From positions 1 through 58,651 of the forward strand of contig JAUSGO010000002.1 of assembly GCA_030649025.1 (NCBI GenBank): 58,651 nucleotides of DNA, in the 5' to 3' direction. Numbering within the stretch: the stretch's first letter is position 1; each line of letters starts with the position of its first letter. Source of the DNA: a bacterium. Its GTDB lineage: Bacteria; Patescibacteriota; Minisyncoccia; JAUYLV01. Positions 13,659-28,524 of the stretch are shown one piece after another. A program made the translations under genes and the position numbers. The notes below the pieces were generated by a model. The model made no database searches, had not been told where the DNA came from, and saw only the letters and a program-made list of their open reading frames with translations.

Positions 13659-13686
13659 AGCTGAAGGAGACCTTTTTCCTTCAGCT
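13659..13686 (-). terminator. intrinsic terminator of the Zn-ribbon gene
   Basis: On the minus strand: AGCTGAAGGAaaaaggtcTCCTTCAGCT followed by TTTATTTTATTTATTTT. It overlaps the stop codon. Confidence 0.7.
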
Positions 13687-13983
13687 GTCCGGGAAGAGAG
13701 GGCGCTGCCTCTCCCTTTCTTTTTTTGCGCGCCGAGTTTTTATTTGGCGCAGGGTGGCTTCTTGCGGAGGTTTTTTCCCGACTCCCTCGGCGCAAGATTG
13801 GCAGTAAGTATAACAGTAGTCGAAACGTCTGCCTTCCAGGAATGTCTGCCGATACGCTTTGGTGAGAGCCGGGATATCACAGCCGCACTTGTCGCACTTG
13901 AAGACTTTGGTAGTAACCACCCATTCCTCAGTAACTCGGCGGGATTGTCCGATGAGCAGTCCTTCTATTCTTCCGATTCTCAT
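13681..13983 (-). CDS. small Cys-rich (zinc-ribbon-like) protein with basic C-terminal tail
   Basis: 100 aa with CDKCGC ... CYTYCQSC. GGGAGG RBS, own promoter and terminator. Confidence 0.5.
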   Translation of the reverse strand: MRIGRIEGLLIGQSRRVTEEWVVTTKVFKCDKCGCDIPALTKAYRQTFLEGRRFDYCYTYCQSCAEGVGKKPPQEATLRQIKTRRAKKERERQRPLFPDS

Positions 13984-14000
13984 TTTTGCCTCCCAATCTC

Positions 14001-14029
14001 ATATTAGCTCATTATTTTATAAAAGTCAA
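14001..14029 (-). promoter_or_regulatory. sigma70-type promoter for 13983-13681
   Basis: Minus strand TTGACT-17 nt-TAATAT, then GGGAGG and ATG. Confidence 0.65.
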
Positions 14030-14036
14030 TAGGTAC

Positions 14037-14064
14037 TTGACAAATAATAAACTAATGCTATAAT
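14037..14064 (+). promoter_or_regulatory. consensus sigma70-type promoter firing rightward into an ORF-free region
   Basis: TTGACA-16 nt-TATAAT with both hexamers perfect, back-to-back with the minus-strand promoter. Confidence 0.65.
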
Positions 14065-14071
14065 GCTTAAT

Positions 14072-14485
14072 GAGATCATAAAACATTGAAAAATCTGCTT
14101 ATTTGTGAGAATACTACTGGGTCTGTGGGGGGCGGGGGTTTCCCAAGAATCCCGGGTTTCCCGGAAGATTCTTTACATAAAAAAGGCATTTGCCAAAGTA
14201 TCTTTTTGAAGCACTCGCTTCCCCCTGACCTGGTAATTGAGTCTTGATGCTATCCGTTCTTGCATTGATAAAAATGCAAGATATAGTACCAAGAAGCGGG
14301 TGCGCAAGGGTGCATGTACTTTTAATCAAAACATCACAACACCTCTTTGCGCTCCCACTCCTTGGTACCTTAAGTTCTTTCCCGCCGGGTCGAAAAACCT
14401 AAGTAGGCCCTGGGGGAGCTTCCCTCCCCCTCCCACGCATATCAAGGGGGGCAGCATAATAACGCTGTTCCCCTCCCGTCTTTTT
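14072..14485. ncRNA. candidate structured non-coding RNA, family unassigned, strand unresolved
   Basis: There is no credible ORF. At least 7 hairpins are present, including an 83-nt helix at 14286-14368. G/C tracts sit among AT-rich stretches. A consensus promoter lies upstream and a hairpin plus T-run ends at 14446-14485. Confidence 0.4.
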
Positions 14486-14555
14486 GAGAGCTTTGTTCTA
14501 AATTTTTACAAAGTTCTTAGAAAAATGGGATTTTGTATACCGATATAGCGAATCT

Positions 14556-14581
14556 AAAATCCGAGCATATGCTCGGATTTT
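14556..14581. terminator. bidirectional intrinsic terminator downstream of prfA
   Basis: Perfect 26-nt palindrome aaaatccgagcat|atgctcggatttt. Confidence 0.8.
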
Positions 14582-14603
14582 AGTTACGGATTTTGTCAGG
14601 GGA

Positions 14604-15656
14604 TCATAATTCGGTCTGCAGCGTTTCCACTACATCCTCAATGTTTCCTTCCATGATTGAAGGAAGGTTGTGCCACGAATGTTTTATACGGTGGTCCGTA
14701 ACCCGGTCCTGCGGAAAATTATAGGTTCGTATTTTTTCTGAACGGTCCTGCGTCCCGATCTGTTCTCTTCGGGAATCTTTTTGCGTTTTTTCCGAGGCCG
14801 CAATTTTTGCCTCAAGAAGTTTGGCCCCCAATACCTCAAAAGCCCGCTCGCGGTTTGCGGCCTGGGAACGCTCTTCCTGCATGGCCACGATAATGCCGGT
14901 TGGTTTGTGGTGAATGCGGAATGCAGTCTCCACCTTGTTGACGTTCTGCCCCCCCGGACCCCCGGATCGGTATGTTTCCGTCTCGATGTCTTCAGGTCGG
15001 ATCTGCACGTCTACCGTTTCGGCCTTGGGAAGTACGGCCACGGACGCGGTGGAGGTGTGCACTCTGCCCGATTTTTCTGTTTCCGGGATGCGTTGAACCC
15101 TGTGTACGCCCGATTCATGGCGCAAAAGACGGTAGCAATTTTTTCCGTCAATATCCATGACAACCTCCTTGATGCCTCCCAGATCCGTTGTGCTCCGGGA
15201 GATGACGCGTATTTTCCATCCCTTGCGCTCCGCAAAGCGGCTGTACATGCGGCGCAATTCCTCGGCAAAGAGCGCTGCTTCCCCGCCGCCCACGCCGCCG
15301 CGTATTTCCATAATGACGCTTGAGATATTTGACGGAGACACGATGCCCAAAGCCAGGCGGTCAAGTTCCTCCGAGAGCTCCTCGATATTTTTTTGGAGAG
15401 CTTTTTTTTCCTCTTCGGCAAGCTCCCGCATGTCCGAGCCCCCCGTCTGTATAAGTTCTTCTACGGTTTCAAGCTGACTTTCGGATTTTTCCAAAGATGA
15501 TGCGCACCCGACGATTTTGGAAAGATCTCCGTAGCGCTTGGACAGGGTTTGCAGCGCGGCGGTGTCCGCGGTAATTTCTGGCTTTGCAAGCTCAAGTGAA
15601 AGCGCCGCGTGTTGAACGCGGGCTTTTTCAACGGCATCTTTGATGTCCTTCCTCAT
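14604..15656 (-). CDS. prfA: peptide chain release factor 1
   Basis: GGQ motif ([15 protein letters not shown]) and RF1-type [14 protein letters not shown]. 350 aa. Confidence 0.9.
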
Positions 15657-18824: not shown

Positions 18825-18937
18825 TATCAATGTTGGGCAGGCCCCCACACCAATTGATTAATAAGTTTTTTGTAGCGCTGGAAAAACATTATGCTATTTT
18901 AGAAGTGCTTTGTTGCTGGTATACTCGATTGGTGTGG

Positions 18938-19021
18938 GGGCAGGTACCGAAGTGGTTAAACGGGACTGGCTGTAGACCAGTTGGCATAACGCCTTCGGGG
19001 GTTCGAATCCCTCCCTGCCCA
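18938..19021 (+). tRNA. tRNA-Tyr (anticodon GUA), long variable arm, CCA not encoded
   Basis: Acceptor GGGCAGG/CCTGCCC, anticodon stem ACTGG/CCAGT, loop CTGTAGA, T arm GGGGG-TTCGAAT-CCCTC. 84 nt, with an unusual G at position 37. Confidence 0.85.
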
Positions 19022-26049: not shown

Positions 26050-26144
26050 TGTTAATTCCTCCTCGATTTCGCCTTTATTGAGACTTTTTTAGGAAAGAGC
26101 CAAATTCTTGTTTACTATTTATATTATAGAACTAGCATATAAAT

Positions 26145-27059
26145 ATGTCAAGCGAAATTCTCGCTACGCTCACCTATCACGACATTCTCAACTGCCCCCT
26201 GACTGCGTGGGAAGTTTTTAGGTTGCAAATAGCGGACGAAAGGCACTTCGTTATCAATGACTATGCGGCAACGCTTGAAGAACTTGAACGGCTTAAGACA
26301 GAAGGGAGCATTGGAGAAAAAAATGGGTTTTACTTTTTGAAAGGACGCGAAAGTTTATATGAAGAGAGGATCGAACGCACAAAGACTGCGGAAGAAAAAT
26401 GGCACGAGGTTTTGTGGGTGCTGAAATTATTCCCTTCGGCGCCTTTTGTGCGGAGCGCATTTCTTTCGGGGTCGGTTGCAACGGGAAATGCCACCAAAGG
26501 AAGCGACGTGGATGTCATGGTCGTTGCCGAAAAAGGCCGCATATGGACCGCGCGGCTATTTCTTTCGTTGCTCGTTCTTTCATGCGGTAAACTGCGCGCA
26601 ACCAGACTCTCAAAAAAAACATCCGGCAAGATATGTCTGAATCACTACGTAACGACCATATCGCTTGGACTCAAAGCTCGGGGGCTTTATAATGCCGCGA
26701 CATATGTGCGTATTATTCCCATTTTTAATCCGGAGATGCTTAAAAAATTTTATGATGCGAATCGGTGGATTTTCAGATTTTTCCCAAATGCGTCTGCCGA
26801 GAAATTACATCAAAAAACATTTCCAGAAAACCCGTTTTTTTTGAGGCTGCGATGGCTTGTGGAAGCGCCCTTGCGGGGAAGATTCGGCGACCTAGTCGAA
26901 AGAGGATTATCCTATGTCCAGAAGATCTTCATCCAAAAAAACCCCTTAACGCAAAGCCGTATAGGTAGGATCGTAGCGGAGGACGAAGAGCTCGCTTTTC
27001 ACCCGGATTCCCCGGAACGCGAGATACTTGACAAGTTTACAGGAAAAATGCTACAATAA
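26145..27059 (+). CDS. nucleotidyltransferase (Pol-beta superfamily) domain protein
   Basis: GSVATGNATKGSDVDVMVV matches the hG[GS]x9-13D-x-D NTase signature. 304 aa. Confidence 0.65.
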   Translation: MSSEILATLTYHDILNCPLTAWEVFRLQIADERHFVINDYAATLEELERLKTEGSIGEKNGFYFLKGRESLYEERIERTKTAEEKWHEVLWVLKLFPSAPFVRSAFLSGSVATGNATKGSDVDVMVVAEKGRIWTARLFLSLLVLSCGKLRATRLSKKTSGKICLNHYVTTISLGLKARGLYNAATYVRIIPIFNPEMLKKFYDANRWIFRFFPNASAEKLHQKTFPENPFFLRLRWLVEAPLRGRFGDLVERGLSYVQKIFIQKNPLTQSRIGRIVAEDEELAFHPDSPEREILDKFTGKMLQ

Positions 27060-28496: not shown

Positions 28497-28524
28497 TTGA
28501 CAATATCTTCACCATCCTTATAAT
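28497..28524 (+). promoter_or_regulatory. consensus sigma70-type promoter of groESL
   Basis: TTGACA-16 nt-TATAAT. Confidence 0.75.

Follow-up and report, generated by a model that had tools for sequence, protein, structure and literature searches.

A putative structured RNA gene of an uncatalogued family beside prfA in a small uncultured bacterial clade

Introduction

When a promoter of consensus strength points into a stretch of DNA that holds no credible gene, the question is what, if anything, is transcribed from it. Such a locus occurs in a 58,651-nucleotide stretch of DNA from an uncultured bacterium (the whole of which is called the window here), where a region of several hundred nucleotides is flanked by two minus-strand genes, one encoding a Zn-ribbon protein (13681-13983) and the other being prfA (14604-15656). 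The gene rpmE lies upstream of prfA, and the window also encodes complex I, cytochrome b, groESL, and uvrA. The closest relative of its prfA in GTDB shares 73% identity, and the nearest named relatives, all Patescibacteria, share approximately 50 to 55%.

The initial annotation of this DNA, made from the letters alone, proposed a structured RNA of no assigned family here, transcribed from an orphan promoter, and this proposal has been borne out by homologs, by covariation, and by the failure of any Rfam family to match. What is new beyond that annotation is a family with members in five lineages, a corrected secondary structure, the strand, boundaries for the conserved body (14112-14368) and for the predicted transcription unit (14071-14485), and a variable 3' cargo. 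As far as comparison of sequences can define a gene, these data show that 14071-14485 on the plus strand is a discrete non-coding structured RNA gene, a member of an uncatalogued family carried by a small clade of bacteria that have not been cultured.

Results

The plus-strand promoter (14037-14064) consists of a -35 hexamer TTGACA at 14037-14042, a 16-nt spacer, and a -10 hexamer TATAAT at 14059-14064, and it matches the sigma-70 consensus at 12 of 12 positions, just as first described; it also carries an extended -10 TG at 14056-14057. The minus-strand promoter that had been proposed for the Zn-ribbon gene is likewise consistent with promoter-like sites present there. Perfect TTGACA-N16-18-TATAAT sites occur three times in the 58.6-kb window (14037-14064 on the plus strand, 26123-26151 on the minus strand, and 28497-28524 on the plus strand), compared with zero across 100 shuffles. 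Of the other two, one serves groES-groEL and the other a gene encoding a 205-aa bacterial PH-domain protein; because a perfect promoter also precedes groES-groEL, the site at 14037-14064 can be assigned to the strong-promoter class of this organism. Transcription would start near 14071. At the far end, a terminator scan found an intrinsic terminator at 14445-14485, composed of an 11-bp G+C-rich stem-loop (14445-14474) followed by CCCGUCUUUUU, in agreement with the hairpin and U tract drawn earlier at 14446-14473. The predicted ends thus delimit a plus-strand transcription unit of about 415 nt, from approximately 14071 to 14485. Just after prfA, a perfect 30-nt palindrome at 14554-14583, CTAAAATCCGAGCATATGCTCGGATTTTAG, forms a bidirectional terminator that separates prfA from the RNA unit running towards it.

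The same RNA was found in four further lineages (L028, L030, L041, and L032-37), usually with prfA nearby, and the prfA genes of these lineages are 72 to 84% identical to that of the window where the contig carries prfA. The clade that holds the RNA is deep-branching, with the nearest named prfA relatives (Patescibacteria) at about 54% identity. L028 was reached via the sole homolog of the Zn-ribbon protein found at that stage (59% identity), and in the 800 nt upstream of its Zn-ribbon gene it is 79 to 90% identical to window positions 14013-14362. Weaker copies in L030 and L041 were located via prfA relatives. A covariance model of the core, R1, was built from the sequences of the window, L028, L030, and L041; it scored the window core at 103.7 bits and, with L032 absent from its training, detected the copy carried by L032-L035 and L037 (56 bits, E 2e-10), which occupies a 440-nt gap, two genes away from prfA. 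In L001, L029, L031, and L042 the model detected no copy, nor did it detect a second one elsewhere in the window, and no second copy was seen in any other locus examined. In L001, L029, L031, and L042, the first three of which are the closest relatives with full-length prfA, other genes, unrelated hairpins, or other unrelated sequence lie 3' of prfA. The contigs of P0009 and P0010 are too short to extend to the RNA.

Pattern searches reached no further. Metagenome DNA scanned with CTGGGTCTGTGGG-N45-75-TTGCCAAAG yielded one chance match, in eukaryote-like DNA (L040), and viral DNA scanned with the same pattern yielded nothing; the pattern was too strict, given that L032 has GAAUCCG and GCCAAAA. 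Phage and plasmid records showed no similarity to the RNA, and literature searches by accession numbers and sequence strings returned nothing relevant on it. Searching for homologs through the ORFs falsely called over the RNA was dismissed as a route, with distant lineages sharing at most a few 5-residue words.

The signals that delimit the RNA recur in the relatives. The L028 promoter is also a perfect consensus, identical to that of the window in both hexamers and the TG and differing at 5 of the 16 spacer positions. In L032 the promoter reads TTGACA-16-TATACT (11 of 12 positions) and sits downstream of the terminator of the preceding gene, and its RNA is terminated, at an equivalent relative position, by an A-tract/U-tract terminator. 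The contigs of L030 and L041 stop at the promoter position.

Comparison of the five lineages gave the following architecture for the plus-strand RNA. A poorly conserved 5' leader (14071-14111) comes first; across promoter and leader together, between the core and the start codon of the Zn-ribbon gene (13984-14111), the window and L028 are 75% identical. The core, about 120 nt long (14112-14234), is a three-way junction in which a helix of approximately 25 bp, P1 (14116-14123 with 14227-14234, G14125 with C14225, and 14127-14142 with 14208-14223), closes the hairpins H2 (14145-14173) and H3 (14180-14207), the latter with the loop motif UUUGCCAAAG at 14189-14198. A linker (14235-14285) holds the variable hairpin H4b, a stem-loop at 14259-14280 in the window that is larger in L041 and missing from L030 and L032, and whose base, CCCGAC/GUCGGG, is common to L028 and L041. 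Beyond it stands H5 (14286-14368), a long imperfect hairpin of about 28 bp with strands at 14286-14312 and 14340-14368 and a U-rich apical loop (14313-14339) bearing the motif GUACUUUUAAU; it was found in all five lineages. The 3' extension (14369-14444), with hairpins at about 14369-14405 and at 14412-14430, is lineage specific, and relatives have other hairpins or a short ORF in its place. Only 14112-14368 is conserved, and the 51% identity between the window and L028 over 14369-14490 is the level of unrelated sequence.

Four of the hairpins drawn in the initial annotation (14145-14173, 14259-14280, 14286-14368, and 14412-14430) reappear unchanged in this architecture, and three of its other assignments had to be revised. 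The stretch at 14208-14221 had been drawn as a hairpin of its own, but comparison with the relatives shows it to be the 3' strand of P1. A hairpin placed at 14185-14194 does lie inside H3, but it is the longer H3 at 14180-14207 that covaries, through its outer pairs. The G tract at 14127, thought to close the ends of the RNA by pairing with the C tract at 14422, instead pairs with 14208-14226.

Folding energy is far lower than that of shuffled sequence on both strands (z = -5.3 for plus and -6.8 for minus), and each homolog folded singly adopts the same architecture. A few exposed or single-stranded motifs are nearly fixed, namely, ACUGGGUCUGUGGG in the 5' strand, UUGCCAAA in the H3 loop, and CYUUUNAW in the H5 loop. 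The junction strands J12, J23, and J31 vary in both length and sequence in all five lineages.

Several local features of the fold are recorded here. At column 12 of H5 an A/C mismatch (C14297/A14357 in the window) is kept in four of the five lineages, as C.A in three and as A.C in L032, L041 having U-A instead; the mismatch could represent an A+.C wobble or act as a recognition mark. The lineage-specific hairpin at 14369-14405, CUUAAGUUCUUU...GAAAAACCUAAG, contains two A/C mismatches on the plus strand that would be G-U pairs on the minus strand, and within it GCCGGGUC resembles the P1 5' strand and could, in the window only, compete for the P1 3' strand. L032 alone has four GCGAAU repeats spaced 8 to 17 nt apart between core and H5 (about 2795-2842, reverse complement).

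Covariation among the loci of relatives, the comparison suggested at the outset, revealed compensating changes across the five lineages. In the core, 97.4% of cells are paired and both sides have changed at 25 of 49 pairs; the corresponding figures for H5 are 93.1% and 16 of 30, and for neither helix set did any of 500 shuffles score as high. Controls in which partners were slid gave 47 to 65% paired cells for the core and 37 to 65% over the core and H5 tests together. The pairing counts are inflated, having been taken from hand-made structural alignments of five sequences that were fitted to the structure. We nevertheless regard the structure as real because L032 was found out of sample and the single-sequence folds agree.

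The plus strand had been preferred initially, and for the core this preference can now be called settled. The core contains 41 G-U cells and 1 A-C cell, and since G-U cells become mismatches on the opposite strand, these 41 place the RNA on the plus strand; standard pairs fill 224 of 230 cells (97%) on plus versus 184 of 230 (80%) on minus, and the plus strand receives 104 bits from the covariance model versus 33 for minus. For H5 the difference is small (12 G-U and 7 A-C cells; 93% paired on plus versus 89% on minus), which fits the earlier remark that the long helix by itself is ambiguous as to strand.

The description of the region as free of ORFs also stands. No ORF over the RNA is conserved among the lineages compared, and a 103-aa ORF at 14237-14548 is disrupted in L028 by 1-nt indels, with mismatches that lack codon periodicity. 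The Zn-ribbon coding sequence, by comparison, is 69% identical between the window and L028, with 49 of its 93 mismatches at a single codon position. Identity between the same two lineages is higher over the RNA than over this adjoining gene, at 90% from the core to H3 and 79% from the P1 3' strand to H5. A pseudogene was considered and rejected: the region is not matched by the proteins that relatives encode beside prfA or beside the Zn-ribbon gene, and the sole apparent match is a false one, to an annotated "214-aa gene" at L028 16-660 that is an ORF called over the homologous RNA. In L032, the first 64 residues of a MazG-like ORF (2519-2710) overlap H5, a hairpin, and the terminator; this N-terminus is almost certainly a false extension, and the true start is probably M65, which follows an AAGAGG Shine-Dalgarno sequence. 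The annotation of at least two public contigs thus needs correction for false ORFs over the RNA.

The Zn-ribbon gene itself (minus strand) encodes a 100-aa protein with a C4 ribbon (C30, C33, C61, and C64) and a basic tail. Its family has 3 members among 5.8 billion proteins, one of them added by profile search; no family was found for it in Pfam or PADLOC, and its AlphaFold model (mean pLDDT of 52) was too poor for a fold search. In both lineages with upstream flank available, the window and L028, the gene is transcribed divergently from the RNA. In the Zn-ribbon mRNA, the spacer from Shine-Dalgarno to AUG includes GGCAAA, which is complementary over 6 nt to UUUGCC in H3. Adjacency in the window and L028, taken with this perhaps chance complementarity, is all that suggests a link between the RNA and the protein.

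A mobile element has entered the RNA in two lineages. This MITE/REP-like palindromic element is 100 to 135 nt long, with ends of the form GCCCCCACAC[T/C]AAT...ATT[A/G]GTGTGGGGG and 14-nt terminal inverted repeats, GCCCCCACAC[T/C]AAT...ATT[A/G]GTGTGGGGGC. Copies lie at 18841-18941 in the window, at 444-578 and 2059-2193 in L028, and at 1733-1849 in L030. The window copy abuts tRNA-Tyr, whose first bases are covered by its right arm. One L028 copy is intergenic, the other sits within the RNA between H3 and the P1 3' strand, and the L030 copy is in the apex of H5. Within the RNA, insertions are therefore seen only where an extra arm spares the helices, a placement that selection on the fold would predict.

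None of the known RNA classes that we considered accounts for these sequences. The Rfam comparison proposed in the initial annotation was run with Rfam 15: in the window only three tRNAs passed the gathering score, and a permissive threshold (E <=10) added only chance miRNA-like matches on H5; no family matched the homologs in L028, L030, L041, and L032 at E <=1; and across eight plus four loci only tRNAs and the chance miRNA-like H5 matches were returned. No family having matched, the label "unassigned" stands. ARAGORN likewise reported three tRNAs and no tmRNA in the window. The size of the region had been thought to suit RNase P RNA or tmRNA, and neither identity survived: no RNase P model of type A or B matched, and the P4 sequences GGAAAGUCC and ACAGAA..GGCUUA are absent from both strands; for tmRNA, standard or two-piece, there was no ARAGORN or Rfam match and no tRNA-like end. 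SRP RNA was rejected for want of a family match and of a domain IV with a GNAR loop, and a 13-nt minus-strand likeness to E. coli 4.5S RNA is lost in L041 and L032. Against 6S RNA, we found a three-way junction and a separate hairpin rather than a single rod with a central bubble, and no Rfam match. A metabolite riboswitch is unlikely because the junction bases vary in all five lineages, P1 is about 25 bp long, and downstream genes are inconsistent or absent. For a retron msr-msd, no reverse transcriptase gene is present in any locus and H5 lies outside P1. Self-cleaving ribozymes (hammerhead, twister, pistol, hatchet, and HDV-like) appear to be excluded by the lack of Rfam matches, and a hammerhead-like CUGA in the P1 3' strand is conserved but is followed by YYU and not by NGA. 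Three further motifs were tried, namely, a K-turn, a G-quadruplex, and, in H3, an anticodon loop like that of tRNA-Gly, and none fits all five sequences. What was found is the set of features that marks trans-acting or dual-function sRNAs, namely, a promoter and terminator of its own, conserved structure, and no conserved ORF.

Discussion

The reading that we place first, at about even probability, is that of a trans-acting regulatory or protein-binding RNA with an optional 3' coding cargo, comparable to the dual-function RNAs. Its helices would be kept by compensating changes in order to display a few exposed motifs that a protein partner or target RNAs could recognize, so that the RNA would serve as a scaffold in trans, of an abundant regulatory or ribonucleoprotein type rather than a metabolite sensor. 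We favor a role in trans because the helices covary around exposed motifs that stay fixed and because two lineages have stand-alone units. In the window and L032, the RNA stops at its own terminator without an ORF. In L028, L030, and L041, by contrast with these two, a Shine-Dalgarno sequence and the start of a short ORF follow H5 within 25 to 70 nt, a distance too tight for a promoter, and the transcript would run into the ORF. The ORFs encode a 60-aa hydrophilic protein in L028, a 47-aa membrane peptide and, after it, a 106-aa protein in L030, and a 30-aa membrane peptide in L041; their products are unrelated or barely alignable, and no family was found for any of them. The cargo would accordingly be optional. 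Three points count against this reading. For three of the five lineages the RNA forms the 5' portion of an mRNA, an arrangement that a role in cis would explain equally well; the mutual unrelatedness of the downstream ORFs leaves room for the cargo to be accidental read-through; and the length of P1 and H5 would also suit elements that do no more than direct RNase III processing or stabilize the transcript.

The most serious alternative, which we consider possible though unlikely, is that the RNA is a cis-acting 5' leader, a long 5' untranslated region that sets the stability or translation of the next ORF, with the window copy being an orphan leader whose ORF was lost. Such a leader might bind a protein, or its 5' anti-Shine-Dalgarno stretch might pair at long range with the ribosome-binding site. 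Beyond the well-placed Shine-Dalgarno sequences that follow H5, this alternative draws on the 5' leaders, which in L028 (GUUCUUCC..CCUUUAAA, about 700-745, reverse complement) and in L030 (ACUUCCU, about 2040-2060, reverse complement) are complementary to the Shine-Dalgarno regions; in minimum-energy folds, base pairing is predicted between each of them and the ribosome-binding site of an ORF lying 330 to 480 nt downstream. The leader of the window has no such stretch and may have lost it along with the ORF. However, the window and L032 keep a promoter of the consensus class, the full structure, and their own terminators with no ORF to regulate, and the ORFs that follow the RNA are unrelated across the lineages (a 60-aa hydrophilic product, 30- and 47-aa membrane peptides, or none). 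The junction bases vary, and a P1 of this length is far too stable for switching. It is also possible, if rather unlikely, that the RNA represents a new abundant class that is a subunit of a small ribonucleoprotein, perhaps together with the Zn-ribbon protein, or that has an undescribed catalytic or structural activity.

A locus akin to type I toxin-antitoxin systems, in which a locked toxin mRNA is paired with an antisense antitoxin and the window holds a decayed, toxin-less copy, is improbable. The 47-aa peptide of L030 and the 30-aa peptide of L041 each have one hydrophobic helix and a charged tail, the L030 leader occludes its Shine-Dalgarno sequence, and H5 folds nearly as well on the minus strand (89% versus 93%). 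Yet it is the RNA body that is conserved, the peptides being barely alignable and present in L030 and L041 only, with no small hydrophobic toxin ORF in the window or L032; the product of the L028 ORF is hydrophilic; a conserved minus-strand promoter that might yield an antisense partner was not seen within the RNA; and PADLOC gave no match. A promoter of consensus strength is, moreover, unusual on a type I toxin mRNA.

Two further explanations are very improbable. A highly diverged 6S RNA, RNase P RNA, tmRNA, or SRP RNA missed by the models would explain the strong promoter, the stand-alone unit, the suitable size, and the fact that no such RNA was found in the 58-kb window, but neither the window at E <=10 nor the four homologs gave a match, and the RNA is not next to prfA in the close relatives L029, L031, and L001. 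That there is no functional RNA here, only a hairpin-rich spacer or palindromic-element debris, or that the functional transcript is on the minus strand, takes some encouragement from the MITE-like insertions in L028 and L030 and from the lower minus-strand folding energy in the window, but it is largely refuted by the compensating changes in five lineages, by conservation above that of the adjoining protein gene, by insertions confined to a junction and an apical loop, and by the 41 core G-U cells that would be mismatches on minus.

If the RNA is real in vivo, it establishes a new family of RNA in a sparsely sampled lineage of bacteria. Its anatomy is unusually clear, running from a consensus promoter through a 120-nt three-way junction and a 28-bp hairpin that keeps an A/C mismatch to a terminator. 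The variations that nature has already made, which include the optional 3' ORF, occlusion of the ribosome-binding site by the leader, and tolerated insertions of the palindromic element, are informative for the design of experiments, and the covariance model can be used to map the distribution of the family.

Among known systems, 6S RNA is alike in being a stand-alone RNA with a sigma-70 promoter and long helices, and a scaffold of the kind we favor would share its abundance; it differs in that a three-way junction and a separate hairpin are found here, and no 6S model matches. The hok/Sok and AapA1/IsoA1 systems resemble L030 and L041 in their small hydrophobic peptides, and the predicted pairing between the 5' end and the Shine-Dalgarno region and the highly structured mRNA are further likenesses, but here the peptide is not the conserved part, two of the five lineages lack one, and the promoter is of consensus strength. 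Orphan RNA motifs discovered through comparative genomics, such as the raiA motif, OLE, ROOL, and GOLLD, share with this RNA an ORF-free intergenic location, covarying helices, a promoter and terminator of their own, and a narrow range; Rfam 15 shows no similarity to them in sequence or structure, the present family spans five lineages only, and the window RNA is smaller than OLE, ROOL, and GOLLD. Although RNAIII/hld of Staphylococcus aureus, SgrS/SgrT, and SR1/SR1P have no homology to the family, and although its ORFs differ by lineage and lie 3' of the conserved body, these dual-function RNAs are alike in combining a strong promoter with a long multi-hairpin RNA, an optional peptide ORF, and a ribosome-binding site hidden by long-range pairing, which in the present case is predicted.
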